DNA of 64,000 nt from a virus (IMGVR_UViG_3300032103_000073); one strand, 5' to 3'; shown: positions 1-45,011, numbered from the stretch's first letter. Numbers and translations: made by a program. Notes: generated by a model not told the origin, from the letters alone.

Positions 1-100
1 TTACTACATAACGCCTCCTACTATATTTTTACCAGAAGAAGGCATTAGGATTACTGTAATAGGTACCGATGAAGATTGGACAGAACAGTTAAGCGATGAT

Positions 101-406
101 TTGGAAAATACCTTCCCAACCGTACCAATGACTTTTTATCATTTGGATGACAGAACAAGCGACAATTGGCAATGGCTTTATCATATGGTTGACTCTAGTG
201 ATTTGATCATGGTAAATGTGGGACGTTGCACACCGTTGGAAGTAAACTTATCCTTGCTAACAGCAAACGGAAGTAAAGTTTGGTTTTATGTGGACAAAGA
301 GCTGGTTGACAAAGACCTTAGAATATTGTTAAATAGCATAAATGCAAATGTGTTTAACAACAGCGAACAACTTCACGCAATGCTTAGAAATTTTGTCGGC
401 GAATGA
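101..406 (+). CDS. hypothetical protein
   Basis: ORF whose stop overlaps the clpX start (ATGA). Confidence 0.4.
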   Translation: MENTFPTVPMTFYHLDDRTSDNWQWLYHMVDSSDLIMVNVGRCTPLEVNLSLLTANGSKVWFYVDKELVDKDLRILLNSINANVFNNSEQLHAMLRNFVGE

Positions 407-1641
407 CTGAAAAGACTAAACCTTTAATGTGTTGCAGTTTTTGCGACAAAAATCAAAACGAAGTTAAAAAATTAGTTGCAGGTAGCAAAGGTTATATCTG
501 CGATGAGTGTATTGTCTTATGCAACGAGGCAATTAAAGATGATATTGTAAAAACTTCTACTACCGGCGAACTGCCAAGTCCTCGAGAAATTTATCAACAT
601 TTAGATCAATATGTTATCAGCCAGGACATGCCTAAACTGTCACTAAGTGTTGCAGTTTACAATCATTACAAACGTTTACAAAATACCAGCGACATTGAAA
701 TTGAAAAAAGCAACGTGCTGTTTATTGGTCCCACTGGATCCGGCAAAACACTGCTGGCAAAAACAATTGCCAAGTTTCTTAATGTTCCTTTTGCTATCAC
801 CGATGCTACAAGTTTAACTGAAGCAGGCTATGTTGGCGAAGATGTTGAAAACGTTATACATAAACTTTATCAAGCAGCAGACAATAATATTGAACGTTGC
901 GAGCAGGGCATTATCTACATCGACGAAATAGACAAGAAGGGTCGCAAAAGCGAAGGTGCTAGCATTACACGCGATGTATCCGGTGAAGGTGTACAACAGG
1001 CCCTGCTAAAGATTATCGAAGGTACTGAATGTCGCGTTCCGCAAACAGGCGGACGAAAGCATCCAGGGCACGAGATGCTGACTATCAATACAAAAAATAT
1101 TTTGTTTATATTAGGCGGTGCATTTGTTGGTCTAGAAGAAGTTATCAATAAGAGAATCAACACTGGTTCTACTATTGGCTTTGGACCGGCAGACTCTAGA
1201 AAGAAACCTAACCTAAATCAAGTAATACACGAAGATGTGATCAAATGGGGAATTATTCCCGAGCTTGCTGGACGCATGCCAAAGATCGCAGTGTTAGAAG
1301 AACTAACAGAAGAACAATTGGTTCGCTCTATGAAGGAACCAAAAAACAGTATCATAAGTCAATATCAAGAGCTATTCCGCATGGACGGGGTTGAGTTGAT
1401 AATAGATGATAGTGCATGCCGCGCTATTGCTAGAAAATGCTTGACTATGAAATTAGGCGCCCGTGGCCTTAGAGCAGAATTGGAATCTGTACTCTTAAAA
1501 ACACAATTTGTCTTGCCTGATTTAGCCAACGAAAATGTTGCTAAAGTCACAATAACCGAGGAAACAGTCAACCAAGGCAAGGAACCACTACTAGTATATG
1601 GCAACAAACGTAAAAAGACAAGAGAACAGAGTTCTCAGTAA
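403..1641 (+). CDS. clpX: ClpX-like AAA+ unfoldase
   Basis: N-terminal C4 zinc finger (CxxC...CxxC), Walker A GPTGSGKT, overall ClpX-like architecture. Confidence 0.9.
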   Translation: MTEKTKPLMCCSFCDKNQNEVKKLVAGSKGYICDECIVLCNEAIKDDIVKTSTTGELPSPREIYQHLDQYVISQDMPKLSLSVAVYNHYKRLQNTSDIEIEKSNVLFIGPTGSGKTLLAKTIAKFLNVPFAITDATSLTEAGYVGEDVENVIHKLYQAADNNIERCEQGIIYIDEIDKKGRKSEGASITRDVSGEGVQQALLKIIEGTECRVPQTGGRKHPGHEMLTINTKNILFILGGAFVGLEEVINKRINTGSTIGFGPADSRKKPNLNQVIHEDVIKWGIIPELAGRMPKIAVLEELTEEQLVRSMKEPKNSIISQYQELFRMDGVELIIDDSACRAIARKCLTMKLGARGLRAELESVLLKTQFVLPDLANENVAKVTITEETVNQGKEPLLVYGNKRKKTREQSSQ

Positions 1642-2137
1642 TAGAGAAATTCGCGCTCGCGAAGTTCGCTTGATCGATGCCGATGGCAGCAACGTCGGAG
1701 TTGTTGCTTACTTTAAAGCATTAAACTCTGCACAGGACCAAGGGCTTGACCTTATCCTAATCAACGGTGCTACAAATCCACCTGTTTGCAAAATAGGTGA
1801 CGTGGGCAAGTACAAATACGAAATGCAAAAGCGCCAAAAAGAACAGGATCGTAAAAATAGAGAAAATCGAGTTGAACTAAAAGAAGTGCAACTACGACCT
1901 GGTATCGGCGAGCACGACCTTGAAGTTAAAATGAAACACATCAAGGAATGGCTAACCGAAGGCGACAAGGTTAAGATTGTTATTAAATTCCGTGGTCGCG
2001 AAATGGCTAATACCGGTCAAGGTACCACAATTATAAATAATATTTTAGAACAAGTGCCCGCAGCTAAACTAGAAGGAACTAGCGAACTGCAAGGCAATAG
2101 AATGATAGCAACATTATTTCAAGGTAAAACAAAATGA
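1598..2137 (+). CDS. infC: translation initiation factor IF-3
   Basis: REIRAREVRL...PPVCKI...KFRGRE motifs typical of IF3; start overlaps the clpX 3' end by 44 nt in another frame. Confidence 0.85.
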   Translation: MATNVKRQENRVLSNREIRAREVRLIDADGSNVGVVAYFKALNSAQDQGLDLILINGATNPPVCKIGDVGKYKYEMQKRQKEQDRKNRENRVELKEVQLRPGIGEHDLEVKMKHIKEWLTEGDKVKIVIKFRGREMANTGQGTTIINNILEQVPAAKLEGTSELQGNRMIATLFQGKTK

Positions 2138-2370
2138 GTAAAAAACAAGGACCATTGATGGGTAGTACAGTTATTGTACAAAATGATAACTGGGAAAAAG
2201 CTCTGCGCATCTTTAAAAAGAAGATTACAGAAAGCGGCAAACTGATTGAACTTAAAGAAAAAGAGTTCTACGAAAAGCCCAGCGTGACCAAGCGCAAGAC
2301 AAAAAATCAACAGGCACGTAGAGCACAGAAGAAGCGTGAAGCTGACGCACTACCAAAGAAACTTTACTAA
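2134..2370 (+). CDS. rpsU: ribosomal protein S21
   Basis: ALRIFKKK...GKL.ELKEKEFYEKPS..KRK...ARRRAQKK signature; ATGA overlap with the infC stop. Confidence 0.85.
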   Translation: MSKKQGPLMGSTVIVQNDNWEKALRIFKKKITESGKLIELKEKEFYEKPSVTKRKTKNQQARRAQKKREADALPKKLY

Positions 2371-2675
2371 TGAGTAATACCATAGACTTGTCTAGCATTG
2401 AACCTGTTGCATTTGAATGGGATGACACTGCTACTACAATTGGAGTTGTAGCACAGGATATTTCTACTATAGCAGGAGTAGGGTCTGCTATTACTGTTTC
2501 TGCTAACAATTGGAATTCTTCTATTAGCTACACTGATCCATACGAAGCAATTGAAAAGAGATTAGCAGCAGTTGAATCGGTTTTGGCAGAAGAAAAAGCC
2601 ATTAGAGATAACTGTCCAGCAGTCAAACAGGCCTATGATGAATACCGACTTTTGCTTGAATTGGCAAAAGGATAA
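2370..2675 (+). CDS. hypothetical protein
   Basis: ORF coupled to the rpsU stop. Confidence 0.4.
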   Translation: MSNTIDLSSIEPVAFEWDDTATTIGVVAQDISTIAGVGSAITVSANNWNSSISYTDPYEAIEKRLAAVESVLAEEKAIRDNCPAVKQAYDEYRLLLELAKG

Positions 2676-2704
2676 TTGACAGGCTTACGAAATCAGCGTA
2701 TAAA
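2676..2704 (+). promoter_or_regulatory. sigma70-like promoter (TTGACA-N17-TATAAA) upstream of hsp20
   Basis: ttgaca 2676-2681, 17-nt spacer, tataaa 2699-2704. Confidence 0.6.
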
Positions 2705-2709
2705 TATAC

Positions 2710-2736
2710 TTGTACAACGCCATTAGGGTTGTACAA
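2710..2736. promoter_or_regulatory. perfect inverted repeat TTGTACAAC-N9-GTTGTACAA (CIRCE-like operator architecture)
   Basis: 9-nt arms with a 9-nt spacer immediately downstream of the -10 box and upstream of hsp20. Confidence 0.55.
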
Positions 2737-2780
2737 TGGGCACATTGCCCAAAACGTTCTTGCTTATTAAAGGAGAAAAT

Positions 2781-3218
2781 ATGAACGCACTTACACGATT
2801 TGACACTACAGCTCTTAACCAATTAAACAGAGCACTGGTTGGATTTGATCGCATGTTTAATGAACGAATCAATTCTAACCAATCTTACCCTCCCTACAAC
2901 ATCATCAAGAAAGATGACAACAACTATGAAATTGAAATCGCAGTTGCTGGCTTTACACTTGGAGAAATTGATGTTGAAGTGAATCAAAACATGCTAACAA
3001 TTTCCGGACAGCGTGATAGAGAAGAAGAAGAAGCAGATGTAGAATATCTACACCGCGGTCTTGCTTATCGTAGCTTTGAAAAGACACTAACTCTTGCAGA
3101 GCATATGGAAGTTGGAACTGCAAGTATTAAAGATGGCGTTCTACGAATTGCTATTACTAGGATCGTTCCTGAAGCACTAAAGCCCCGCAAGGTTGAAGTT
3201 ATCAGCTACGACAAGTAA
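2781..3218 (+). CDS. small heat-shock protein (Hsp20/alpha-crystallin family)
   Basis: alpha-crystallin-like core (IAVAGF...L.I); SD AAAGGAG before ATG 2781 (track ORF begins at 2736). Confidence 0.75.
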   Translation: MNALTRFDTTALNQLNRALVGFDRMFNERINSNQSYPPYNIIKKDDNNYEIEIAVAGFTLGEIDVEVNQNMLTISGQRDREEEEADVEYLHRGLAYRSFEKTLTLAEHMEVGTASIKDGVLRIAITRIVPEALKPRKVEVISYDK

Positions 3219-3228
3219 GCACTAAAAC

Positions 3229-3245
3229 GGGGGCACTGTGCCCCC
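3229..3245 (+). terminator. GC hairpin gggggcactgtgccccc (weak terminator)
   Basis: perfect stem after the hsp20 stop; no strong T-run. Confidence 0.35.
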
Positions 3246-3273
3246 AATTGATAAATACTTTTGAAAGTTAAAA

Positions 3274-3579
3274 ATGAGCGTAATGGCAGAAACAAGTCAA
3301 TCAACTAAACAAGACGTTGTTATCAAGCAACCTAGCATGTATAAAGTCGTGTTTAATAACGACGATGCAACTCCGATGGATTTTGTTATTGATTTACTCA
3401 AGGCAGTTTTTCATCAAGACGAAGACCGTGCTACCCAAACTACAATGGAAATTCACGAAAAAGGTCGTGGCATTGCAGGTGTTTATACTTTTGAAGTAGC
3501 AGAACAAAAGCACAGCGAAGCAACGTATATCGCCCGAAATAATGGGCATCCACTTAACATTAACCTAGAGTCTGAATAA
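3274..3579 (+). CDS. clpS: ClpS-like adaptor
   Basis: PSMYKVVFNNDDATPMDFVIDLL...ATQ...H..G.....FEVAE matches the ClpS core. Confidence 0.8.
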   Translation: MSVMAETSQSTKQDVVIKQPSMYKVVFNNDDATPMDFVIDLLKAVFHQDEDRATQTTMEIHEKGRGIAGVYTFEVAEQKHSEATYIARNNGHPLNINLESE

Positions 3580-3857
3580 TGGACGCAAAAACAAAAGAAA
3601 TCCTGGACATCACCCAAGAGGAATGTGCAGAAGTAGTAGTAGCCGTGAGCAAAATTAGCCGCTTTGGCATAGACAACGTTAAACCCGGTAAGCCTAAAAC
3701 AAACAGGGAACACTTGGAAGAAGAAGTAGGTGACTTGTTAGCTATGGTGGACTTGATGATTGAACATAAAGTTATTGACGTTAATAGCGTTAATCTAGCT
3801 CGTGCCGCCAAAAAAGACAAGCTAAAGCTGTGGAGTAATATCTACTCCGAAAATTGA
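3579..3857 (+). CDS. MazG-like nucleotide pyrophosphohydrolase domain protein
   Basis: EEVGDLLAMV-type MazG motif, small all-alpha protein. Confidence 0.5.
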   Translation: MDAKTKEILDITQEECAEVVVAVSKISRFGIDNVKPGKPKTNREHLEEEVGDLLAMVDLMIEHKVIDVNSVNLARAAKKDKLKLWSNIYSEN

Positions 3858-4267
3858 TAATATCAGTAGAAACCATGATATAATGTTGCGGTGCCAGATA
3901 AATAAGTAGAAACACTGAGTTTTTATTTAAGAAAGGCACCACAACATGCTATCACTTATTGCATACTTAATCAAACCGCTGATTAACGAACAGCAAAATC
4001 AACAAAATGATTTAGATCGTTATATAACCAGCAAACAGCCTACTACAACAGCAGAAGTAGAATACTGGCAACGAGAATATGATAAAAAACAATCTGTAGG
4101 AGGTTGGTTATCATGAAACATATTAAACAAATCTTTTGGGAATTTATATTAGAATATGCAGAGTATCGCCGAGCTCAAATTGAGCGCCGCGGTTATGCAA
4201 ACTGGTATTAATGCGTAGTTAATATTCTGCTGATACTGCTAAATATTTTATATAGGGGGTATTTGCA

Positions 4268-4696
4268 GTGCCAAGAAAACCAAACGTAACCCAAACTAAA
4301 CTGTTCAAAATGGTGCAACAGTTCGACGAATTTGACTGCAAATTTAGACCTACTATACAGGATTGTCGTAGCGTATTTCGTCAGATAAACAAGCAGGTAT
4401 TTAATAATGAATTAAAAATGCCAGCATTTAGATTAGTTTATTCTAGTGCATTTTGGGGTGAATGCACAGGCGATCAATATGACCAAACTAAATGCACTAT
4501 TAAAATGAACAAAAGCTTCTTATCTAAGAGGCTTTTTGTTTATACATTAGCACATGAAATGGTGCATCAATGGGAATGGTTAACCTATGAGAATATGACA
4601 CATGGCCCGAGATTCTTTATATGGCGAGAAGAATTAAGTAAATTCGGTATTATATTAAGTAGAAAATATCGAATAAAGCATTATAAGCTAAAGTAA
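4268..4696 (+). CDS. HExxH zinc-metallopeptidase-like protein (SprT-like)
   Basis: TLAHEMVHQWEW motif. Confidence 0.5.
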   Translation: MPRKPNVTQTKLFKMVQQFDEFDCKFRPTIQDCRSVFRQINKQVFNNELKMPAFRLVYSSAFWGECTGDQYDQTKCTIKMNKSFLSKRLFVYTLAHEMVHQWEWLTYENMTHGPRFFIWREELSKFGIILSRKYRIKHYKLK

Positions 4697-4719
4697 TACT
4701 CGAGTATTATCTAAATAAA

Positions 4720-4748
4720 TTGGCACAAATTGGGCTCCATGTTATAAT
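4720..4748 (+). promoter_or_regulatory. conserved early promoter (TTGGCA-N17-TATAAT)
   Basis: member of the repeated promoter family. Confidence 0.7.
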
Positions 4749-4754
4749 ACATAC

Positions 4755-5069
4755 ATGATGAAGCGCAAAACACGTTCCGACCGCAAGCATGCAATCTACG
4801 TTATTACTAACGTAGTTACTAAAGACCAATACATTGGTGTTACAGTTTGCTCAGGCAACCTTCGCAAAGCACTAAAAGTTCGCATGCAAAAGCACATCCG
4901 CCGCGCACTTACAGAAAACAAAGACTGGGCACTGTGCCGCAACATCCGTGACTACGGTGTTGAAGCATTTGAGTATGGTGTTGTTGAAACTGTGCGCGGC
5001 AAAGCGGCAGCTCACGCACGTGAGCGCGAGCTTACTCGCGTACATGCTCCTGTTTTGAACACACTGTAA
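4755..5069 (+). CDS. small GIY-YIG-domain protein
   Basis: IYVITN...YIGVT...R..E motif spacing. Confidence 0.5.
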   Translation: MMKRKTRSDRKHAIYVITNVVTKDQYIGVTVCSGNLRKALKVRMQKHIRRALTENKDWALCRNIRDYGVEAFEYGVVETVRGKAAAHARERELTRVHAPVLNTL

Positions 5070-5083
5070 AAGAAAGTATTACA

Positions 5084-5269
5084 ATGAGCTATTTGCGTTT
5101 TATTTGGTTTGTTGTTGAACGTGACGGCGTTCGTGAAGCTATTCGCTGGGCTGAAAACGCTAGCCCTATGCCCGGACGCCAAACCCTGCCTGAATACTGT
5201 GCAGATCAGGGTTATGCTATCATGTCAGGTCCTTACAAAACTCGCAAAAAGGCTCTTGAAAACTTATAA
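5084..5269 (+). CDS. hypothetical protein
   Basis: ORF. Confidence 0.35.
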   Translation: MSYLRFIWFVVERDGVREAIRWAENASPMPGRQTLPEYCADQGYAIMSGPYKTRKKALENL

Positions 5270-5271
5270 AT

Positions 5272-5300
5272 TGGCACAAATTGGTTTTGGCGCTATAATA
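5272..5300 (+). promoter_or_regulatory. conserved early promoter plus UTR cassette
   Basis: TTGGCA-N17-TATAAT followed by ACATACATAGCGTAACAAAACAGGAG and ATG 5332. Confidence 0.75.
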
Positions 5301-5331
5301 CATACATAGCGTAACAAAACAGGAGTTAAAG

Positions 5332-5544
5332 ATGTCGGCAAATCCAGGAGCTTTTATGACTTATGCAGGCTTGAAGAAGATGTTGGAGCAGATGACACCT
5401 GAGCAGTTGCAACAGAATGTAGTAGTCTATGCAGGAGACATCGACGAAACTATGCCTGTCTTTGGTACTTGTACAAATACTGAAGAAGAAATGGGCGAGG
5501 TGTTGGACACTGATCCCGAAGGTGCGTTCTTCCTGTTGGTTTAA
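5332..5544 (+). CDS. hypothetical protein
   Basis: ORF downstream of the UTR cassette. Confidence 0.5.
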   Translation: MSANPGAFMTYAGLKKMLEQMTPEQLQQNVVVYAGDIDETMPVFGTCTNTEEEMGEVLDTDPEGAFFLLV

Positions 5545-5639
5545 GGAGTAGAAAATGACCGCTATTACTAATCTCATTATCGTACTCATGCCGGTTATCA
5601 TCATGGGCCTATCAATCATTGTCAAGGATGGATTCTAAA

Positions 5640-5849
5640 ATGAACGAACGAATTTTATCACCACAACTACTCAAGTTAGTTCAAGATGCTGGCCCCGGGT
5701 ATTCGTTAGCCGATCCTAAATGGGTTAAAAAGTTCGCCGAGTTGATTGTCAGAGAATGTGCTATAATTGCTAATCGTGCTGAGAATACTGAAACCGAGAT
5801 ACGGTGTATGTATGATGTGATTACTGAACATTTCGGAGTTGAAGAATGA
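5640..5849 (+). CDS. FAELIVREC-family small protein
   Basis: KFAELIVRECA...EHFGVEE; paralogs at 5846, 33366, 60368 and 63139. Confidence 0.6.
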   Translation: MNERILSPQLLKLVQDAGPGYSLADPKWVKKFAELIVRECAIIANRAENTETEIRCMYDVITEHFGVEE

Positions 5850-6037
5850 ACGAACGAATTCAAGAACTCGCTGAACAGGCCAGCGACACTAGCGATTACG
5901 GACTTGAGTGTGTGACTGACAAATTTCTAGAACACTTTGCTGAGTTGATTGTTCGGGAGTGTGCTGATTTTGCGGCAAGTCAAGGATCCGGTTGGGAAGC
6001 AAGAAAATCAATTGAAAAACATTTCGGAGTTGAATGA
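5846..6037 (+). CDS. FAELIVREC-family small protein
   Basis: HFAELIVRECADF...KHFGVE; ATGA overlap with the upstream paralog. Confidence 0.6.
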   Translation: MNERIQELAEQASDTSDYGLECVTDKFLEHFAELIVRECADFAASQGSGWEARKSIEKHFGVE

Positions 6038-6206
6038 TGAAAACAATGTATGAAGTGATTATGATTGACGGGCACTGCCCGAGCGAAACCTGCTCCCTGG
6101 GCTTGTACTCGACTCGAGAGTCTGCTGAAATAACCATTGAGAAAGAGGCTCCTCAATATTCTGATCATATGATTTTTGAAATCGAAGAAAAGTATGTTGG
6201 CGAGTG
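6036..6206 (+). CDS. hypothetical small protein (56 aa)
   Basis: ATGA-coupled ORF not present in the track. Confidence 0.35.
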
Positions 6207-6219
6207 AATAGCAAATAAA

Positions 6220-6248
6220 TTGACACAAATTGATGTCTGCGTTATAAT
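6220..6248 (+). promoter_or_regulatory. conserved early promoter plus UTR cassette
   Basis: TTGACA-N17-TATAAT and GATACATAGCGTAAACAAACAGGAGTTAAAG before ATG 6281. Confidence 0.75.
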
Positions 6249-6280
6249 TGATACATAGCGTAAACAAACAGGAGTTAAAG

Positions 6281-6733
6281 ATGGGTACACGTTCGATTAT
6301 TGGTGTTATGCATGGTGATGTTTGCAAAAGCGTTTATTGCCATTGGGATGGCTATTTGGCTCACAACGGCAAAATCTTGCTGGACAACTACGACAGTGCT
6401 AAAGCCAATCACTTGGTTGCTTTGGGCGACATCAGCTCGCTTGCCGCCAAAATCGAAGTGCCTGATTTAGTTGAGCACACCTTTGACAAGCCCGCAGAAG
6501 GTATCACAGTGTTCTACGGTCGTGACCGTGGCGCGACCGGCACCGAGTTTCGTGTGTCACACACCTTCCAAGACTTCCTGGAACGTGCTGATAGTTGCGG
6601 CGCAGAGTATTACTATATTATGAAAGACGGTGTTTGGTACTGCGGTACTACTTACGCCTCGGGCGTTCTGGCTAACAAGTTGACTAGTTTGGCAGAAGCA
6701 ATTGCCCAAGAAGAATCTATGGCTACTATCTAA
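6281..6733 (+). CDS. hypothetical protein
   Basis: ORF; the track N-terminus MIHSVNKQELK is the translated UTR. Confidence 0.55.
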   Translation: MGTRSIIGVMHGDVCKSVYCHWDGYLAHNGKILLDNYDSAKANHLVALGDISSLAAKIEVPDLVEHTFDKPAEGITVFYGRDRGATGTEFRVSHTFQDFLERADSCGAEYYYIMKDGVWYCGTTYASGVLANKLTSLAEAIAQEESMATI

Positions 6734-7050
6734 TGGACTACGAAAAGCGTTATAACGAACAAGGACAAGTTGCAGTTCTAATCAGCCCGGGCTTCGGGGC
6801 TGGTTGGAGCACTTGGTCTGGCGAGCATGCAGAAGCTATGATCTTCGACAGCCGGTTGGTTGACTATGTCTTGCTCAACGATACTATAGGTTTGGGCGAA
6901 TACGCACAATCATTAGGCTACGACAGCTACATGGGCGGCGCCGAAGATGTTGAAGTGATTTGGGTAGATGCAGGTACTAGATTTGTTATTGAAGAATATG
7001 ACGGAAGCGAAAGCATCCTAACGTTTGAAGATTTGTCTTATATTGCATAA
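6733..7050 (+). CDS. hypothetical protein
   Basis: coupled ORF. Confidence 0.5.
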   Translation: MDYEKRYNEQGQVAVLISPGFGAGWSTWSGEHAEAMIFDSRLVDYVLLNDTIGLGEYAQSLGYDSYMGGAEDVEVIWVDAGTRFVIEEYDGSESILTFEDLSYIA

Positions 7051-7059
7051 GGATTAAAC

Positions 7060-7422
7060 ATGGCAGGCTATCAAGCAGTTTTAGAACTTCGTCGCATTGA
7101 AGCAGATCTGGATGCTATGGGTCTTATGCTTTGCAACCCTAAGCACGGTAGCTGGAGCGAAGAAACATATGGCGACCGTGCTGGAGTAAAGCCTAAAGAT
7201 GCAGATGCACTGCCTATCTACAGTCGTGATGCAGAATTGTTTACTGGCACACTAGAACAGATTCGTACTTGGATGATTGGTGTTAAGTGGGCACGTGAAT
7301 ATGACATGATGCTACGACTCTCTGACGACAAGAAGCGAGTAAAGAAAGAAGATGATTATCGCCATCGCGAAATGTTGCGCCGTCTGGCACACGACCACAC
7401 TAAAGTAAAAGAGGACCAATAA
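7060..7422 (+). CDS. hypothetical protein
   Basis: ORF. Confidence 0.5.
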   Translation: MAGYQAVLELRRIEADLDAMGLMLCNPKHGSWSEETYGDRAGVKPKDADALPIYSRDAELFTGTLEQIRTWMIGVKWAREYDMMLRLSDDKKRVKKEDDYRHREMLRRLAHDHTKVKEDQ

Positions 7423-7715
7423 TGACTGATGACAACAACCCAACAAAACCCGAAGACCTTAAAATTGTTTTTGCTGAAGGTTGCTTTGACAACTTCGAAG
7501 GCACACAGGAAGAACTAGACGAGATGATTGCAGAAATCAACCGCATGGTCACTAGCGGCGAAATCTTCGAAAAGAGTCGTCCCGTTGACCTTGACAACAT
7601 GGACGAAGAAGAACTCGTTGCACTTGCACAGGCAATGGGTTTGAATTTTGAGGAACTAGGTATTCCTGAAGAGCTTGCAGACTCGATTGCTAAAAAGCCA
7701 CGGTCACTACAATGA
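7422..7715 (+). CDS. hypothetical acidic protein
   Basis: ORF with ATGA overlap. Confidence 0.5.
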   Translation: MTDDNNPTKPEDLKIVFAEGCFDNFEGTQEELDEMIAEINRMVTSGEIFEKSRPVDLDNMDEEELVALAQAMGLNFEELGIPEELADSIAKKPRSLQ

Positions 7716-8038
7716 GTAGGTTTCTTGCCATGTGGGACTGCCAGGGTCTAGAATGTATGTTTGACATTACAGATCTCGACCACGATGCTATGATTGCAGG
7801 CATAAAAGACGAGCCATTTAAGACTCCTTTTAACTTGACTGCAATGATGCTTCGTGCCCGTTATAATAGTCAACGCAGTTATGAAATCTACACATTTGAA
7901 ACTGAAGACCAAGTCGACCTGCATGAAATGAAAACTATGTTTAATAATAGTCCGCAAGGTTTTGCAGAGCTTATTAGAGAAAAGGGTAATAAGATTTACA
8001 GCGACTATACTCCTAGCAATAAAAAGGTGATTGCATAA
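7712..8038 (+). CDS. hypothetical protein
   Basis: ORF. Confidence 0.5.
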   Translation: MSRFLAMWDCQGLECMFDITDLDHDAMIAGIKDEPFKTPFNLTAMMLRARYNSQRSYEIYTFETEDQVDLHEMKTMFNNSPQGFAELIREKGNKIYSDYTPSNKKVIA

Positions 8039-37650: not shown

Positions 37651-37728
37651 TGCTCCTATAGCACAATTGGTTAGTGCAATCGACTCATAATCGATAGGTT
37701 ACTGGTTCGAGTCCAGTTGGGAGCACCA
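37651..37728 (+). tRNA. tRNA-Ile2 (anticodon CAT, lysidine type) or Met
   Basis: cloverleaf; anticodon arm ..TCGACTCATAATCGAT.. as in E. coli tRNA-Ile2; encoded CCA; adjacent to tilS. Confidence 0.8.
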
Positions 37729-37733
37729 AGATT

Positions 37734-37809
37734 TCTGGCGTTCGTTCAATGGATAGGACAAGATTCTTCTAAAGTCTTTATGGGGGTTCGATTCCCTCAC
37801 GCCGGACCA
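37734..37809 (+). tRNA. tRNA-Arg (TCT)
   Basis: cloverleaf; anticodon loop CTTCTAA. Confidence 0.75.
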
Positions 37810-37810
37810 A

Positions 37811-37850
37811 ACAAAAACAAAAACCCGCATAATGCGGGTTTTTGTTTTAT
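37811..37850. terminator. bidirectional rho-independent terminator
   Basis: A-run, cccgcataatgcggg stem, T-run. Confidence 0.8.
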
Positions 37851-38725
37851 CCATTATAGTTAAACGTCGAACGAACTAAAACACGCTCTCTTAATATATT
37901 AGGGTCGTCTTGATCTCGTTTGTGTATGGTCAAGATTTGATCCATCAGAATAATATCACCGGGCTCCCATGGGTGCGAATAGATAAACTTATCCTGAAGA
38001 CAGTGTTCTTTTAAATCTTCTAACAAGCATGGATCTTGCGGAAATGAGCACTTGTTATGAAAGTGAAAATATAATCCTTTTTTTCCTCTAAAGCTATCGT
38101 TGATCAACGGCATTTGATAAGGAACTTTATTTTTTGCCATAGCGTTATATTGATCTGCTGGTAATCCTTCTGCCCATATTTCGGGAGCATACTCAAAATT
38201 GCCCACTATGCCCTGGCAACGCTCTTTGAGGTCTGCAGGCATAGCTTCGTAAGCTAGTGTAGTATCCATGAAACTAGTGCTGGTCCCCTTAATGCCTTCG
38301 CTTACACCCTGCAAGGCAACACCGTTAGCCCTACCCGGTCCGTTGTAGTTGCTATGCCAGTCTAGTGTGCCGGTTCCGAATATACCACTGCGTTTGCCAT
38401 TTTTTATTTGTCCGGTTACTCGCTGCACAGGATACAGATCATCTATGCCTTCATAATTAAATGGATCGATAACTTCTTTGGCTTTGTTAAACAAGACATT
38501 ACCGTGAATGTCCCACGTGCATTGGTCCCAGTTAGCAACATTGCCTTGACCCATGCGATAAATTAGTTTCATATAAGGAACGGTTAGCCTGGGTTGATTT
38601 TTAAATACAACAACTAAATCGCGCAGCAGTGACTCTTTAATATCTACATAATCTTGTTCTGTTAGTTCTCGTATGTCGCAGTCGGAAATTTCTACGGCAC
38701 AATTGTTTAATGGTGTAATCTTCAT
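37847..38725 (-). CDS. TauD/TfdA-like Fe(II)/alpha-ketoglutarate dioxygenase (putative)
   Basis: WEPGDIILMDQILTIHKR C-terminal motif; 292 aa. Confidence 0.45.
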   Translation of the reverse strand: MKITPLNNCAVEISDCDIRELTEQDYVDIKESLLRDLVVVFKNQPRLTVPYMKLIYRMGQGNVANWDQCTWDIHGNVLFNKAKEVIDPFNYEGIDDLYPVQRVTGQIKNGKRSGIFGTGTLDWHSNYNGPGRANGVALQGVSEGIKGTSTSFMDTTLAYEAMPADLKERCQGIVGNFEYAPEIWAEGLPADQYNAMAKNKVPYQMPLINDSFRGKKGLYFHFHNKCSFPQDPCLLEDLKEHCLQDKFIYSHPWEPGDIILMDQILTIHKRDQDDPNILRERVLVRSTFNYNG

Positions 38726-38779
38726 ATGTTTATTTAATCAATAGAGCCTGTAAGCTAGAAAAGTCTAATAAATATTTGC

Positions 38780-39568
38780 ATGTCATATTCTAAAATCATA
38801 ACAAACAAACTAGCTTCTAATACAGAATTTTTACCTTACATTCAATTGGCAGCAACTGCACTGGTTGCAGCATTTGTTATATTTTATCCCCAGTCTCATG
38901 CAGGATGGCTAACAGCAGTTCTTATGTATGCGGCGATTGGCTGTTTTGGCATTAGCATTGGTTATCATAGACTACTAACGCATAAGAGTTTTAAGACTAC
39001 AAAATTTTGGGAATATTTTTGTGCCTTGTGGGGAACATTGGCATTTACTGGCAGTGCGATAGGTTGGGTAGGCATGCACAGAGACCATCACAAATACAGC
39101 GACAAGCCGGGTGACCCGCATAGTCCAGTAGTTCGCAGCTGGCGCATGCTAGTAGCAGCTTACGATTATGCCCCGGATAAATGGAAGATTCGCCATTTAA
39201 TCTTTGATAAATTTCACGTCTTTATTCACACTTGGTATTTTGGTTTATTGTTAGCATGGACAGCTTTTTGGTTTTCACTTGGTGGAATAGCATTAGCTAT
39301 GTATGTGGTTATTATCCCTGCGGTAATTAGCGTTTGGGTTAGCACTACTAGCAACTATATGAACCACAAATGGGGATATAGGAATTTTGAAACAACAGAT
39401 AACAGCCGCAACCTTTGGTTTAATGCAGTCTTTACATTTGGAGAAGGATGGCATAACAACCATCACGCTCGCCCGGGTAATTATGACTTTGGATCTGGTA
39501 CTAGTGGCAAGTGGTGGGAATTTGATCCCGGTGCTAGAATTATAGAATTGATACGATCTTGCAAATAA
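38780..39568 (+). CDS. membrane fatty-acid desaturase/hydroxylase family protein
   Basis: three His boxes HRLLTH, HRDHH and HNNHH; four TM helices. Confidence 0.7.
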   Translation: MSYSKIITNKLASNTEFLPYIQLAATALVAAFVIFYPQSHAGWLTAVLMYAAIGCFGISIGYHRLLTHKSFKTTKFWEYFCALWGTLAFTGSAIGWVGMHRDHHKYSDKPGDPHSPVVRSWRMLVAAYDYAPDKWKIRHLIFDKFHVFIHTWYFGLLLAWTAFWFSLGGIALAMYVVIIPAVISVWVSTTSNYMNHKWGYRNFETTDNSRNLWFNAVFTFGEGWHNNHHARPGNYDFGSGTSGKWWEFDPGARIIELIRSCK

Positions 39569-40077
39569 TTATAAGTTGCACTTGAATCTAGTAAAATTTG
39601 CAAAAAAGAAAAATCGCTGTCGCTATTATTTACAAACATCCCTTTTAATGAGCGGTCTATAATAAAAGGTAGTGGCTGAAGATTATGTTTCTCTGCTTTA
39701 CTTTTATCGTTATTGGCACTAAAATAATTAACGTCAATAGTTCCCGGCGTTAGTGGGATATATAACTCAACTGAAGTTTTGACATCATTGACATACAAAT
39801 CGATAAATCCTTTGCGCTTTTTCGGGTGCATATTATAAAGCATTATTCTTGAAATATTTAAATTGCAATTACTTATGAAATTAAAAATCTCGTAAGTGTG
39901 TAATCGATCATATTGGATGAATTTATTTTTAATATTTTTTGAATGGGACCCCCAGTCGAATTGACAAGAAGATCGGTCTTTTATGACCTCTATATCCGAT
40001 TGCAGCAATTGATAAAAATCAACCGAAGCTTTATGGTCTTGAAAAAAAGTTATTGACATTATTCTAAAAAATAACAA
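39481..40077 (-). CDS. hypothetical protein
   Basis: minus-strand ORF in the island. Confidence 0.4.
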   Translation of the reverse strand: MLFFRIMSITFFQDHKASVDFYQLLQSDIEVIKDRSSCQFDWGSHSKNIKNKFIQYDRLHTYEIFNFISNCNLNISRIMLYNMHPKKRKGFIDLYVNDVKTSVELYIPLTPGTIDVNYFSANNDKSKAEKHNLQPLPFIIDRSLKGMFVNNSDSDFSFLQILLDSSATYNYLQDRINSIILAPGSNSHHLPLVPDPKS

Positions 40078-41240
40078 TGGCTAGTAGATCGAACTAGGCC
40101 GTATTTTATACCCTTCATGCTTGTCCATTCGGGTCCTGCAATTTGTTGCAATTTTTTAATCCCGTTTGTATATATTCTCCTCTGCTCGCTATGTTCGTCT
40201 TTTAAAAACCAAGCGTCACGAGGACTCCACATTAACAAAAAATCATCTTTACCGCTACTATAAGTGTCAGTATTCCAATCTGGATATACAATACGATGTA
40301 ATCCGTTGTTTGTTAGATAAATGAATGTATTGTTATATTTGGCTTTTCCTAACACATTATATTCCGGCGTTAGCCAACCAGCCTTGACATCGTATTCTGG
40401 CACATTTTTTAAATAGTTCATGACTAAATGGCCCTGCTTACATAGTATGTCACATGCATCTGGACTCCAGTAAAAAAACTCATCATTTTCCCAACTTCTG
40501 TTTAGTTCCTGAGTTAAAGGGTTAACGGCATTATCTACAATGTCTATGAAGTTAATTGCATATTTGTTGTTTATTAAATTAACACGCGGTTTATCAATAC
40601 CCCAAACAAAGCAAACAGATTTTCCTTTCGAGTACAAGTCTAAATAATCTTTTTCTTGTTCCCTGATATATCGTCTTGCTTGTTGATTTGGACTAAAAAC
40701 AGCATTTGATTTATACAAGAAATCAAATTTATTGTTATCTTTTGAAAACAAGTCTTTTTGATAGTCTAAATGATCTACTAACCGGAATTTGGTCAATGGG
40801 CTATGTTCTAGCAATTGTTTTGCTACCGGCATTGCAACTCTACTAACTTCACTATTTAAATAAGTGTCCCAACTTCCATCACCGCCGAAATTATGAAAGG
40901 TTGCAATTTCATCTACAAACAGACCTTGATCAACAAATGCTCGTAGCATTGTATAACTGTCTGCTCCACCGGACCACCAAAGCACTATGTAATCATAACG
41001 TTCTCTAATTTGCCTTGCTCGTTTTTGATAAAGAGTTCTTAAGTCCTCGGTTGGTTCGATTTTCCAATTATATGATGCAAATTCATAGTCATTGAAATTC
41101 CAATGTATCTTGTCTACATTATTTTTTTTAGCTGCTTCTATAGCAGATACTTTGCTATAGAATTTCAAATCATTGACTTGATAAAAGCCAAATTTATCTT
41201 TAGACAAATAAGGCTTTGAAATAAGCGAATCGTAGGTCAT
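40059..41240 (-). CDS. PP-loop (SGGxDS) ATP-pyrophosphatase-like protein
   Basis: IVLWWSGGADSYTML motif; 393 aa. Confidence 0.5.
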   Translation of the reverse strand: MTYDSLISKPYLSKDKFGFYQVNDLKFYSKVSAIEAAKKNNVDKIHWNFNDYEFASYNWKIEPTEDLRTLYQKRARQIRERYDYIVLWWSGGADSYTMLRAFVDQGLFVDEIATFHNFGGDGSWDTYLNSEVSRVAMPVAKQLLEHSPLTKFRLVDHLDYQKDLFSKDNNKFDFLYKSNAVFSPNQQARRYIREQEKDYLDLYSKGKSVCFVWGIDKPRVNLINNKYAINFIDIVDNAVNPLTQELNRSWENDEFFYWSPDACDILCKQGHLVMNYLKNVPEYDVKAGWLTPEYNVLGKAKYNNTFIYLTNNGLHRIVYPDWNTDTYSSGKDDFLLMWSPRDAWFLKDEHSEQRRIYTNGIKKLQQIAGPEWTSMKGIKYGLVRSTSHCYFLE

Positions 41241-41269
41241 AAGTAAGTGTATAATTAACTTTATTTATT

Positions 41270-42196
41270 ATGAACAAAACATTTTTAACACTACTGGGAT
41301 CTCTAATGATTTCCACTTCTCTTTTTGCAAAAGAAAAGATTTCGATTTATTTTCCATATGCAGCCAGCGCAAGTCCGACACCTAGCGTCATACGTATGGT
41401 AGATGAAGCAAATAACTTGCAAGAAAAATATAATTTCCAACTGGTATTTAAACCAGGTGGCAATCAGGGTATTGCAGTGAATTCGATGGATCGAGAACCT
41501 AACAACTCGTTGTCTGTTATTGCGCCTGCTTATGTAGAAAATTACAAAACTAACATGTTTGACAAAAACAATCACGTACCGATATGGTCGATGGGTAATG
41601 CTTGTTGGTTGGTTATTTCTAATTTAGGAGACGAAAAAACAGGATTATCAAGTTTAAAACACGAAAAAGAAATAAATGTCGGCGGGGTCGGCTTTGGTAA
41701 TGCTACACACCTGACTGCACTTGCGTTGGGAGAGAAATATAACATAAAAATAAATTATATTGTTTTCAAATCAAACACAGATGCTCTGATGAATATGGTC
41801 GGAAAAAACGGTATTAACATGGTTATAGATAAAGCAGATAACTATATTAATTTTAAAGAAAAAGGTAATCTTCGTGCATTAGCAGTGAGCTGCAATAAAA
41901 AAATAGGGAAATTGAATTTCGTTAAAACATTAGAAGAACAAAAAATAACAGCGCCTTCAGTTTTTAATATTATTATTGCAAACAAAAATATGCCGATAGA
42001 CTTGCAGCAAGACATCAAGTCTATTTTACAAAAAAGTGCAGAAAACATTGGACAAGATTTTTTCTTAGAACATAGTGGTTTTAGACCTAGTCAATTTGAT
42101 AAAATATCAGAAGACATGTTTTACAACAAATCGTTGCTTTTGTTAGAAGAATTGCTTGCAAAGCATAAATATGCTATAGAACTAAGTAAAAAATAA
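41270..42196 (+). CDS. secreted periplasmic solute-binding-like protein
   Basis: signal peptide plus about 290-aa mature domain. Confidence 0.35.
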   Translation: MNKTFLTLLGSLMISTSLFAKEKISIYFPYAASASPTPSVIRMVDEANNLQEKYNFQLVFKPGGNQGIAVNSMDREPNNSLSVIAPAYVENYKTNMFDKNNHVPIWSMGNACWLVISNLGDEKTGLSSLKHEKEINVGGVGFGNATHLTALALGEKYNIKINYIVFKSNTDALMNMVGKNGINMVIDKADNYINFKEKGNLRALAVSCNKKIGKLNFVKTLEEQKITAPSVFNIIIANKNMPIDLQQDIKSILQKSAENIGQDFFLEHSGFRPSQFDKISEDMFYNKSLLLLEELLAKHKYAIELSKK

Positions 42197-42205
42197 GGAG
42201 ATACT

Positions 42206-42565
42206 ATGTTTACTTTAACGATTACAACAACAAGACCTGATACTTCTGCACCGTTTTTTCCGCATTCGCCGGCTGGGCGTTTATACGAAGAAACTTCGCA
42301 AGAACTAATGTTAGAAAGAAATAGTAGCATGCACAATAAACTCGTAGAGTTTACAAGGGTAGAATCGACTGACCATTTAACATTAATAACGACTCTTGTG
42401 TTTGAAAACGTCGAAGGTAGGAAAATATACGGAGATACGCTACTAAGTAGATTATTAGAAAAAAATCTATTAGCAATAGCATCCGCCAGGGAATTATACA
42501 ATCAAACAGTAAATCACGTCAGTACTGTAGAGGTTAAAAACGAAGGTTCTAATACACCGAATTGA
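42206..42565 (+). CDS. hypothetical protein
   Basis: ORF. Confidence 0.4.
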   Translation: MFTLTITTTRPDTSAPFFPHSPAGRLYEETSQELMLERNSSMHNKLVEFTRVESTDHLTLITTLVFENVEGRKIYGDTLLSRLLEKNLLAIASARELYNQTVNHVSTVEVKNEGSNTPN

Positions 42566-42645
42566 CCCTTATTTGTAAAATAGAGTAAACGACTAAGTCG
42601 TTTACTCAGTAGGCAAGCATAAAATAAAAGATTGCAATGTAGACT

Positions 42646-43389
42646 ATGAGCACACGCTTACCTGTATACGCCCCTTTAAATAATAGATTTACGTTTGATG
42701 CTGCTCGTTTAATTGCAGAAATTAACAGTCTAATTGCAAATCAAGCAGAAGAAAGAACATTACCTTTTGAAAACGGTCGTAGCGTATATGACCCTGCTGG
42801 CCGGCTGCAAATCGCAAGCGATGCCGACTTAAACAACACTACGAAATATGAAATAAACGAACACAGACAACGAGTTAAAATCCCTGGCAAGATTAAAACT
42901 TACCATGTTTTTAACTTAACCTATTTGCCTGAAGAACAAGACAGTCTAATAGATATATATCGAAATAACGATCCTGAGAAAAAGATTTTTTGGCATACTT
43001 ATAAAAAGCCCTTTACGTGGCGTAAAGAATTAGAAAATACTTACATTAAACAGTGCGTGGAACAATTTCCGTGGGAGTATATACAAGGTGTTAGACTAAT
43101 ACATATGTCACCGCCTAGTATTGGACAAATTCATAGAGATAGTCACCCCAGAGATAATCTACGCTATTTTAGAGAAGGTTTTGCCAGTATCAGTTTTAAC
43201 ATAGACTCGGGCAATGGAGTTCTTAAGTATTTAGACGCAGGCGAAGAAAAGCAAGTTAATAATAATGTTAAAATATTTCACTTTGATGACAGTGTTGCCC
43301 ATGGTGTCACTGCAATTTCATCTCCACGCTACCAACTGAGAATGTGGGGGAAATTATCTGTTCCGTATTTGGATTTATTAAATGTTTAA
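42646..43389 (+). CDS. Fe(II)/2OG dioxygenase-like paralog
   Basis: QIHRDSHP ... VAHGVTA (HxD...H). Confidence 0.4.
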   Translation: MSTRLPVYAPLNNRFTFDAARLIAEINSLIANQAEERTLPFENGRSVYDPAGRLQIASDADLNNTTKYEINEHRQRVKIPGKIKTYHVFNLTYLPEEQDSLIDIYRNNDPEKKIFWHTYKKPFTWRKELENTYIKQCVEQFPWEYIQGVRLIHMSPPSIGQIHRDSHPRDNLRYFREGFASISFNIDSGNGVLKYLDAGEEKQVNNNVKIFHFDDSVAHGVTAISSPRYQLRMWGKLSVPYLDLLNV

Positions 43390-43933
43390 AAAACTTGATA
43401 ATTCTTTTTTAAATTTAGAACTAGATTGGAAGTCGTTTATAACAGATGATATATTTACAGAATATTATTCTAAAAAACGCGGCGGCGGTAGCTTCTTTTA
43501 TACCCTGCCTTGTAGTAAGAAAGACTTCTTAAATCTGCAAAAAAAGAATATTTTTACTATCGAACCAACTTTTATCCAGTACTGCGAATTTACCGGTCCC
43601 GGTTTGGTTACTCCGCATATTGACCGAGGGTCAACTGTTGCATTGAACTTTTACCTGGAACCGCAAGGTGATCGCACAATTTTTTATGAAACTACTTTAG
43701 ACTGTGACAGTGGTACCGGGTACCACGGGGATAAATCAAAGTTGTCATATGTAACAGACTTGAGCACCTTAAAAGAAATAGGATCTTTTGTTGCTGCACC
43801 ACTTGACGTTTATTTGCTAGACGTTAACAAATTGCACGGGATAGAAAAAGTAAACGACCTGCCGCGAACAATGATTACCTTCAGGTGGTTTAAACATTCG
43901 TATGAAGAAGTGTTATCAAGCCTGTCCTTATAA
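43382..43933 (+). CDS. Fe(II)/2OG dioxygenase-like paralog
   Basis: TPHIDRGSTVALNFYL ... KLHGIEK (HxD...H). Confidence 0.4.
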   Translation: MFKKLDNSFLNLELDWKSFITDDIFTEYYSKKRGGGSFFYTLPCSKKDFLNLQKKNIFTIEPTFIQYCEFTGPGLVTPHIDRGSTVALNFYLEPQGDRTIFYETTLDCDSGTGYHGDKSKLSYVTDLSTLKEIGSFVAAPLDVYLLDVNKLHGIEKVNDLPRTMITFRWFKHSYEEVLSSLSL

Positions 43934-43938
43934 AATAA

Positions 43939-43967
43939 TTGACACAAAGGCTAAATAGAAGTACAAT
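43939..43967 (+). promoter_or_regulatory. promoter (TTGACA-N17-TACAAT)
   Basis: upstream of tRNA-Thr. Confidence 0.6.
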
Positions 43968-43975
43968 AACAACAT

Positions 43976-44052
43976 TGCTGGATTAGCTCAGTTGGTAGAG
44001 CACTCGCCTTGTAAGCGAAAGGTCGTCAGTTCGAACCCGACATCCAGCACCA
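43976..44052 (+). tRNA. tRNA-Thr (TGT)
   Basis: cloverleaf; loop CTTGTAA; CCA encoded. Confidence 0.8.
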
Positions 44053-44086
44053 AAGTTAAATTTTTTATCTATTTTGCCAAAAGATA

Positions 44087-44115
44087 TTGACACAAGAGAT
44101 AAATAAACTTATAAT
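44087..44115 (+). promoter_or_regulatory. promoter (TTGACA-N17-TATAAT)
   Basis: consensus hexamers. Confidence 0.6.
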
Positions 44116-44164
44116 AGAAGCTTACGTTAACAAAGTTAGCGTAGAAATTTTTAGGAATAACCAA

Positions 44165-44314
44165 ATGCAAACGATTGCGAAACATTTTAGTCAGTTTAGT
44201 TCACAAGCCAAACAGGTGGCAATGCCCACCTATTGGTGTGCTCTAGGCTCTGGCTCTAATGATCGCACACCGGAGATTAGGTCAGGGTTCCATGAAGGAT
44301 CAGGTTACGCATAA
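44165..44314 (+). CDS. hypothetical small protein
   Basis: ATG 44165 after the promoter (track ORF begins at 44087). Confidence 0.35.
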   Translation: MQTIAKHFSQFSSQAKQVAMPTYWCALGSGSNDRTPEIRSGFHEGSGYA

Positions 44315-44337
44315 GTAATCAAAGAATTCAAAAGGAA

Positions 44338-44370
44338 CCCTGGAACTAAAAACTCCAGGGTTTTTGTTTG
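44338..44370 (+). terminator. rho-independent terminator
   Basis: ccctggaactaaaaactccaggg stem plus T-run. Confidence 0.8.
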
Positions 44371-44379
44371 CTGAAAAGG

Positions 44380-44760
44380 AAAAATGATAGACACCGAGAC
44401 AAGAATTAAACAGCAAGCAGAATGGTTGAAGTTGCATACTTTAACTCAGGAGCAAACGAAAGTTTTGATCCAGAACAAGTTAAGGCGTGCAACAGAGATG
44501 CATACTGCTTTAAACAAGCGAGAGGTGCTTTGTAAGCTCCGTTAAAATCGCAAACGTGGGATAGGGAACGCGACCCTGCAGACACGCAAAACACTGCTAG
44601 TAATGTGGGCGGCCTACCCGATGGTAAGTCTATGGTGAGAACGTAGATGTGTAAAACGGTAGAGTATTAAAGTGTATTAGGTCCCACACCAGGCAATTGG
44701 AGCCGAAATGTCGTCTAGTATACTTTAATACACACATTCGAAAGAGTGTGTTAACAAATA
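44380..44760. other. ORF-free structured region (candidate ncRNA)
   Basis: no ORF of 60 aa or more; multiple inverted repeats (e.g. acacacattcgaaagagtgtgt). Confidence 0.35.
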
Positions 44761-44761
44761 T

Positions 44762-44839
44762 GTACGGGTGGCAGAGAGGCCCAATGCAACGGTCTGCAAA
44801 ATCGTAAAACCGTCGGTTCAAATCCGACCCCGTACTCCA
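44762..44839 (+). tRNA. tRNA-Cys (GCA)
   Basis: cloverleaf; loop CTGCAAA. Confidence 0.65.
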
Positions 44840-44845
44840 AATTTA

Positions 44846-44923: not shown

Positions 44924-44928
44924 AATTT

Positions 44929-45004: not shown

Positions 45005-45011
45005 AGTTAGT

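Follow-up and report, generated by a model that had tools for sequence, protein, structure and literature searches.

The small heat-shock gene hsp20 of the virus IMGVR_UViG_3300032103_000073 is preceded by a perfect inverted repeat, and the question raised by this locus is whether the repeat works as DNA, as the binding site of a repressor, or as RNA, within the transcript of hsp20 itself. The stretch analysed (the window) comprises 64,000 nucleotides (nt), and the repeat lies at 2710-2736. The initial annotation compared it with CIRCE, the operator of HrcA, and proposed repressor-controlled or stress-responsive expression of the phage chaperone. Read from comparative sequence data, the repeat is the DNA image of the first hairpin (hairpin I) of a folded mRNA 5' leader of about 70 nt, and hsp20 is probably controlled through the folding of RNA and not by a repressor that binds DNA. 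The best overall explanation, to which we give a probability of about 0.72, is that this structured leader would act as an RNA thermometer of the ROSE-like type.

The layout of the locus was as the initial annotation described it in most respects. On the + strand, a sigma-70-type promoter was read as the -35 hexamer TTGACA (2676-2681), a 17-nt spacer (2682-2698) and the -10 element TATAAA (2699-2704), the last lying within TATAAATA (2699-2706), where the T4-type late-promoter motif NATAAATA is also found. The 9-9 inverted repeat, with its left arm TTGTACAAC (2710-2718), 9-nt spacer GCCATTAGG (2719-2727) and right arm GTTGTACAA (2728-2736), starts 5 nt 3' of TTGACA-N17-TATAAA (2676-2704) on the same strand. 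It had been said to overlap the promoter; it is clear of both the -35 and the -10 elements, and its left edge falls about at the predicted +1. The pattern TTGACA-N17-TATAAW occurs 17 times in the window, always on the + strand, against 0.04 expected, which makes the promoter call credible, and it is clearly the standard sigma-70-type promoter of this phage. The hsp20 promoter is the only one of the 17 copies (sites 2676 to 59799) with TATAAA, the remaining ones having TATAAT. Most of the 17 also share an extended -35 region (TTGACACAAAWT...) that resembles a phage-specific early-promoter consensus.

The 9-N9-9 repeat was present as a single copy in the 64 kb, even with up to three mismatches allowed, and shuffled sequences gave 0.03 copies; the further copies that the initial annotation had proposed to look for were thus not found in the window. 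The 8-mer TTGTACAA occurs five times in the window compared with 2.3 expected and is itself palindromic, so that the inverted repeat doubles as a direct repeat; the three TTGTACAA sites outside the repeat are near chance expectation.

No close DNA relative of window positions 1-8000 was detected by megablast among 50,697 phage records, and relatives were recruited through the Hsp20 protein in IMG/VR, which yielded 43 loci with 37-83% identity. The same leader was present before hsp20 in 42 of these 43 viral contigs, with a shared upstream plan consisting of NATAAATA, a stem-loop at the position of the repeat, usually a short, GC-rich second stem-loop, and (A)CGTTCTTGCTT-N4-6-AAGGAGA-N5-ATG. 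This plan also precedes hsp20 in the T4-like phages Melnitz, Mosig, S-PM2, P-TIM40 and C48C1, and in Atu_ph07; the leaders of S-PM2 and P-TIM40 showed the same two modules by eye. The downstream gene (2781-3218, + strand) encodes an IbpA-like small heat-shock protein of 145 amino acids that matches the Pfam HSP20 family (PF00011) at 4e-19 and is 44% identical to Escherichia coli IbpA, in agreement with its earlier identification; by tblastn, hsp20 was found in 508 phage records, mostly of cyanophages. Its start is the ATG at 2781, which lies behind the Shine-Dalgarno (SD) sequence AAGGAGA (2770-2776) and from which the relatives keep the N-terminus MNALTRFD. The ATG at 2736, given as the start by the open reading frame (ORF) finder, was rejected; it is not conserved and sits at the 3' edge of hairpin I, entering hairpin II.

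Fold and pair counts were obtained with RNAalifold and an explicit structure on 24 non-identical three-hairpin leaders, and the sequences of hairpin I were compared in 31 distinct leaders that bear it. RNAalifold predicted hairpin I with a bulged G, a second hairpin (hairpin II) and a CGUUC/GAACG stem close to the start codon. In hairpin I of the window (2710-2736, + strand), the lower stem is formed by 2710-2718 and 2728-2736, and pairing extends into the nominal spacer through C2720-G2727 and C2721-G2726, with G2719 bulged and a true loop AUUA at 2722-2725. The arms differ among the relatives and always pair, with TTGTACAAC/GTTGTACAA replaced by TTGTAAGAC/GTTTTACA, CTATGCAAC/GTTGCATA, TGTGGTAGA/TTTACCACA or CACAGCAGA/TTTGCTGTG; among the 31 distinct leaders, the change from TTGTACAAC/GTTGTACAA to CACAGCAGA/UUUGCUGUG is a further example in which complementarity is kept. 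These 31 leaders have 31 different hairpin I sequences and one fold, with 39 G·U pairs. In the set of 24, 97% of the cells of hairpin I were paired and six of its 11 pairs had changed on both sides. For the structure as a whole, 96.5% of cells were paired, compared with 35-52% when the 3' partners were slid; 11 pairs (51 cells) had changed on both sides, compared with at most three pairs (at most seven cells) in the slid controls, and the observed covariation score was reached by none of 500 shuffles. Mean folding energies of hairpin I were -12.65 kcal/mol for the sense strand and -9.05 kcal/mol for the antisense strand, making the sense strand the more stable one (Wilcoxon p = 5e-6, for sequences that are related and not independent). 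The compensatory changes in the arms, the 39 G·U pairs and the better folding of the sense strand together identify the repeat as an RNA stem of the sense strand.

The same data bear on the possibility that the repeat is a CIRCE-like palindromic operator extending from +1 to +27, at which a repressor of host or phage would block the hsp20 promoter. Such a reading draws on the perfect 9-N9-9 palindrome and on its position right after a strong promoter, where operators can act. The sequence of CIRCE, a DNA site, is conserved (TTAGCACTC-N9-GAGTGCTAA), and this consensus was not found in the window within three mismatches; the likeness is limited to the 9-N9-9 geometry and the position before a heat-shock gene, and the initial annotation had itself recorded that the sequence was different. 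In the orthologous leaders the half-sites are not conserved and vary freely, while the pairing between them is kept. In a symmetric duplex site the G·U pairs would appear as A·C mismatches, the folding is strand-asymmetric, and the invariant part is not the arms but the asymmetric apex (A/G)(C/U)-G-CC-N4-GG-G. Several copies before chaperone operons would be expected of CIRCE, whereas the 64-kb window has one copy of the repeat and the covariance model described below finds one per locus. The repeat is, moreover, one of three co-conserved RNA helices. The operator reading is thus largely refuted by the covariation, at the level of the sequences compared, and we regard it as very improbable; with it falls the suggestion of repressor-controlled expression, while the geometry noted earlier stands. 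The initial annotation had regarded a repeat that is unique and without conservation in related phages as the outcome that would count against it; the repeat is indeed unique in the window, but its structure is very well conserved in the relatives.

Even less probable is that the stem-loop serves as a terminator or attenuator of the upstream gene (2370-2675), or that the palindrome arose by chance. It is a stable stem-loop of about -12 kcal/mol that lies 35 nt past the stop codon of the upstream ORF, but UGGGCAC takes the place of a U-tract after the stem, the element does not appear in the terminator scan list, and it is located downstream of the promoter and not upstream. It also stays with hsp20 although the upstream gene varies (S21, a groEL-like gene and others). 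For a chance palindrome the expectation is the 0.03 of the shuffles, and conservation over 31 distinct variants excludes this origin.

Hairpin II (UGGGCA-CAU-UGCCCA, 2737-2751, + strand) is supported by covariation, with GC<->AU exchanges in 10 sequences and CG<->GC exchanges in five, and is missing from a set of relatives with two hairpins (L016, L019, L023, L024 and L032-L039). Hairpin III (2755-2787, + strand), the putative thermosensor, consists of an outer stem CGUUC (2755-2759)/GAACG (2783-2787) and, within it, an anti-SD segment UCUUGCUU (2758-2765), a loop AUUA (2766-2769), the SD sequence AAGGAGA (2770-2776) and the AUG (2781-2783). Through the outer stem CGUUC pairs with the G of the AUG and with codon 2, and one compensatory change was found there (CAUUC/GAAUG in L011). 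The anti-SD segment contains the ROSE motif UUGCU (2760-2764), located 5-6 nt before AAGGAGA, with G2762 bulged or mismatched; UCUUGCUU does not vary among the 24 three-hairpin leaders, and the two-hairpin relatives have either CUCGCUU or UCUUGCUU. The variant UCGCU was found in L016, L019, L023, L024, S-PM2 and P-TIM40, and in all leaders compared UUGCU or UCGCU stands opposite AAGGAG with its G predicted as bulged or mismatched. In the minimum-energy fold of the two-hairpin relatives the pairing is CUC-G-CUU/AAGGAG or UCUU-G-CUU/AAGGAGA with a bulged G. In the full leader of the window G2762 faces G2773 as a predicted G·G mismatch, and when hairpin III of the window was folded in isolation the bulged-G pairing was the minimum-energy fold (-7.9 kcal/mol at 5 °C, -1.2 at 45 °C). 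No second copy of the anti-SD/SD pattern was detected in the window.

A covariance model built from the 24 three-hairpin leaders found exactly one copy per locus, always preceding hsp20. It also recovered the two-hairpin variants that had been omitted from its training set and matched the leaders of hsp20 in cultured phages, at E about 1e-6 in Mosig and Melnitz, 0.0045 in P-TIM40 and 0.011 in Atu_ph07, and in this way it bridges the three-hairpin leaders and the two-hairpin leaders of cultured phages. When 185,579 species genomes were scanned for exact matches to CGTTCTTGCTT-N2-8-AAGGAGA-N3-9-ATGAA, a search that misses divergent copies, no cellular three-hairpin leader was found; the two cellular matches were dismissed as chance, with unrelated genes downstream and no hairpin I. 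In L032-L039 a GroEL-like ORF ending in GGM repeats (...PPMGGGGMGGMPGMGM*) lies about 110 nt upstream of the hsp20 leader, and these phages seem to carry groEL adjoining hsp20.

ROSE-like thermometers are defined by the sequence U(U/C)GCU imperfectly paired to the SD sequence with a predicted bulged G (PMC3669281, PMC11342760), and have two to four hairpins, the 3'-proximal one containing the SD sequence (PMC3669281). The leader of the window (2710-2780) lies between the promoter motifs and the Hsp20 ATG at 2781, as do those of the 42 relatives; three hairpins are predicted, with covariation backing helices I and II, and two are predicted in some relatives; and UUGCU (2760-2764) is placed opposite the SD sequence. 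An RNA thermosensor, named as an alternative in the initial annotation, is consistent with this combination of covarying sense-strand helices and a ROSE motif.

The leaders were also scored with the Rfam models ROSE (RF00435), ROSE_2 (RF01832) and ROSE_3 (RF02523; gathering score 43 bits), short segments being used for those of the relatives. ROSE_3 gave 34.1 bits with Melnitz-3 (E 3.5e-4), 28 bits with Atu_ph07 (E 0.012), 26.8 bits with C48C1 (E 0.025) and 24.6 bits with L034 (E 0.0025). Its alignments to two-hairpin leaders take in the ROSE hairpin as well as hairpin I, the latter as AUGCC...GGGU with its bulged G, and in the ROSE_3 consensus for hairpin I (ugCGgGAU-G-CCG-AAgU-CGG-GUCcCGca) the stem is followed by a bulged G, a CC/GG clamp and a tetraloop, just as in the inverted repeat of the window. 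As positive controls under the same settings, the E. coli ibpA leader scored 100 bits on ROSE_2 and a Pseudomonas-type ibpA leader, taken from an unverified 'phage' record, scored 69 bits on ROSE_3. That record (L053; OQ572409.1, 'UNVERIFIED Pseudomonas phage Y7') carries at 225-291 the bona fide ROSE_3 thermometer of an ibpA gene, and its DNA is probably from a Pseudomonas chromosome and not from a phage. Judging from these resemblances, the leader is placed with the ROSE-like thermometers, nearest to ROSE_3, the short type with two hairpins known from Pseudomonas ibpA, of which it would be a divergent phage-borne member with hairpin II inserted and an additional stem that occludes the start codon. 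Matches of the window (2736-2787) to the Rfam family freshwater-2 (17 bits, gathering score 49.9) and of the leader to preQ1-II (16 bits) were discarded, both resting mainly on the common AAAGGAGAAAA SD stretch. The freshwater-2 consensus ends in the same AAAGGAGAAAA SD context, and that motif may derive from related phages.

The short ROSE-like thermometer of Pseudomonas ibpA (Krajewski et al., 2013, PMC3669281) likewise lies within an ibpA/hsp20 gene's 5' untranslated region (UTR), and its hairpin I, UGCGGGAU-G-CCG-AAGA-CGG-GUUCCGCA in the Pseudomonas-type leader, resembles UUGUACAAC-G-CC-AUUA-GG-GUUGUACAA in the window; a long stem, the bulged G, the CC(G)/(C)GG clamp and the tetraloop are shared, as is the 3' hairpin in which U(U/C)GCU with a bulged G stands opposite GGAG. 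Alignment to the ROSE_3 model runs from end to end in the two-hairpin phage relatives, whereas the window inserts hairpin II between the two ROSE_3 hairpins. The closing stem CGUUC/GAACG of the window pairs with the start codon, while the AUG is unpaired in Pseudomonas (PMC3669281); furthermore, the stems are AU-rich in the window and GC-rich in the Pseudomonas type, and the carriers are phages here and a bacterial chromosome there.

The E. coli ibpA thermometer (ROSE_2, RF01832) has three hairpins, as does the window, and precedes the gene for IbpA. Its core hairpin UUCUCGCUGAUUUCAGGAG is identical to UUCUUGCUUAUUAAAGGAG of the window at 15 of 19 positions, with the same succession of three base pairs (bp), a bulged G, three bp and a tetraloop, and its core pairing CUC-G-CUG/CAGGAG is matched in layout by the core of the window. 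Hairpins I and II, however, are unrelated in sequence, ROSE_2 scores nothing on the window, and E. coli ibpA is dependent on sigma-32 (PMC10474464), unlike the phage gene with its sigma-70-like and T4-late-like motifs. ROSE1 of Bradyrhizobium japonicum hspA (RF00435) is similar in having several hairpins with the SD sequence and the AUG in the last one, and its nuclear magnetic resonance structure places the G opposite the SD sequence in a G·G pair (PMC11342760), as the predicted fold of the window places G2762 opposite G2773. It differs in having four hairpins and a longer UTR, and no sequence similarity to it is detectable.

If the leader works in this manner, a mechanism can be outlined. 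Transcription is predicted to start at about 2710-2713, which would place hairpin I at the extreme 5' end of the mRNA, and would be driven by the sigma-70-type TTGACA-N17-TATAAA promoter, by the overlapping T4-type late motif TATAAATA, or by both. Hairpins I and II would be stable and insensitive to temperature, forming a folding scaffold and a protector of the 5' end by analogy with Pseudomonas ibpA, in which hairpin I showed no temperature response, its disruption derepressed the thermometer, and a role in mRNA stabilization was proposed (PMC3669281). Hairpin III would sequester the ribosome-binding site (RBS) through the imperfect pairing of UCUUGCUU with AAGGAGA and of CGUUC with the G of the start codon and codon 2. 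In the cold this weak helix would limit binding of the 30S subunit, and on warming or heat stress it would melt, allowing hsp20 to be translated. In silico, hairpin III was the only helix that melted; the pairing probability of hairpins I and II remained above 0.88 up to 60 °C, that of the outer stem of hairpin III fell from 0.96 to 0.31, and the probability of an open region from the SD sequence to the AUG rose from <1e-4 at 10 °C to 5e-3 at 42 °C. Melting on warming is common to all RNAs.

Several results weigh against a ROSE-like thermometer and were considered together. The anti-SD and SD columns are invariant, so that covariation is uninformative on this helix, and the variation scored for helix 4 was alignment slippage. 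The pairing probability between the anti-SD and SD segments was only 0.1-0.27 in the full-length fold. The opening energy of the hsp20 RBS was 5.5 kcal/mol at 20 °C, which ranks 31 of 37 genes in the window and is below the 9.4 kcal/mol of the E. coli ibpA control; an unusually occluded RBS, considered as a possible mark of the gene, was ruled out by both values. The leader of the window matched none of the Rfam ROSE models even at E<=10, the ROSE_3 scores of the relatives and cultured phages (24.6-34.1 bits) remained below the gathering score, and the two-hairpin relative L016 was without any ROSE match. Finally, the stem of hairpin I begins directly after ATAAATA in L025, L030, L032, L034 and L043, with stems of 14-16 bp, which is at odds with transcription starting some 6 nt downstream of a late promoter of the T4 type; in these relatives ATAAATA may be part of the RNA, or the start may lie nearer to the motif than in T4. 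Nearest-neighbour models underrate known ROSE elements, which depend on non-canonical pairs. Given this, together with the unremarkable opening energy and the weak anti-SD/SD pairing, the energetics are neutral evidence on thermosensing.

The weak predicted occlusion of the SD sequence also leaves room for a protein cofactor, and a different function of the structured leader was weighed, in which it is not a thermometer and hairpins I and II stabilize the 5' end or bind a protein, in particular the phage Hsp20 (or the host IbpA), which would repress its own leader until titrated by aggregated protein, as in E. coli. We consider this unlikely, although less so than an operator or a terminator. 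Below the invariant apex of hairpin I (the bulged G and CC/GG) the stem covaries freely, which suggests specific recognition, and the same apex is present in the ROSE_3 consensus of Rfam and in the Pseudomonas-type ibpA leader. A 5'-terminal stem-loop acting as an mRNA stabilizer is what was proposed for hairpin I of Pseudomonas ibpA (PMC3669281). In E. coli, IbpA binds the ibpA 5' UTR and so represses its own synthesis, for which R93 and Y34 are required (PMC10474464); the equivalents of R93 and of the aromatic residue at 34 are both kept in the Hsp20 of the window and in the aligned phage homologues. An arginine equivalent to R93 is probably widespread, however, as a comparison with human small heat-shock proteins indicates (PMC10474464), and its retention is therefore weak evidence, while K98, whose replacement in K98A abolished repression in E. 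coli (PMC10474464), corresponds to T in the protein of the window. Autoregulation is in any case compatible with thermosensing, both acting on the same leader in E. coli. A tentative extension, and an unlikely one on present evidence, is that the hsp20 leaders of T4-like and related jumbo phages combine a thermometer with an aggregation sensor, the apex of hairpin I being the candidate binding site of Hsp20.

The motif NATAAATA, the reported late promoter of T4-like cyanophages (PMC2984593), was found 3-5 nt before hairpin I in 43 of 44 leaders (42 of the 43 loci and the window). Among 43 leaders (the 42 relatives and the window), a sigma-70 -35/-10 pair overlapped NATAAATA in 16, including the window, was separate and upstream in six and was absent from 21. 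The hsp20 gene of the window may thus be transcribed both early and late, with TATAAATA as the putative late promoter. In the tRNA region of the window (below), TATAAATA was also found 4-5 nt before the ATG of ORFs (45214-45221, 47151-47158 and, on the - strand, 53580-53587), a proximity that suggests leaderless late transcripts; the ORF at 45226 has an N-terminus resembling that of GIY-YIG homing endonucleases.

The hsp20 stop codon is directly followed by a terminator-like GC-rich palindrome, GGGGGCACTGTGCCCCC (3228-3246), which can be read on both strands and was listed on the - strand by the scan; this putative terminator probably ends the hsp20 transcript. The gene belongs to a host-like proteostasis and translation cluster (403-4696) comprising ClpX, IF-3, ribosomal protein S21, Hsp20, ClpS, MazG and an SprT-like protease. 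The ATG-started ORF for IF-3 overlaps that for ClpX by 44 nt, so that the true start of IF-3 may be a non-ATG codon further downstream. The same phage region includes 32 tRNA genes on the + strand (37652-54390), and the tRNA call at 48346-48419 has a four-base anticodon (gtaa) and represents a possible frameshift suppressor or a degenerate tRNA.

Few host-like genes are as widespread as hsp20 among the T4-like phages of marine and fresh waters. Full-text literature searches found neither an RNA thermometer on a phage hsp20 gene nor an account of its control. The phage-associated thermometers mentioned in the literature consulted are of the fourU type; blyA of prophage SPbeta has one, and another, which also occurs in the genome of a Caudoviricetes phage, lies upstream of a sigma-70 gene (PMC11342760). 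A 2024 review only speculates that viral RNAs might sense conditions. Against this background, the element is probably a new phage-borne representative of the ROSE-like thermometers or a variant of them, and control by stress or temperature, which the initial annotation had anticipated for the chaperone, is the most likely function of its leader, although it would be exerted through RNA. For annotation, the case shows that a perfect palindrome right after a promoter is not necessarily an operator. At about 70 nt and transferable to reporters in E. coli, the leader would also be a simple sensor to examine by experiment.

If the leader functions in the manner of the Pseudomonas and E. coli ibpA thermometers, these phages would carry a cis-acting sensor of temperature or stress. 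The bulged-G hairpin I of short ROSE elements would then be conserved from the Pseudomonas-type leader to distant phages, which bears on the function of hairpin I in general. Were the leader a combined sensor of temperature and aggregation, the phage would adjust how much chaperone it makes to the state of proteostasis in the infected cell and not to temperature alone, and the added hairpin II, together with the stem over the start codon, would adapt the switch to an aquatic host of cooler habitats, such a habitat being assumed here.

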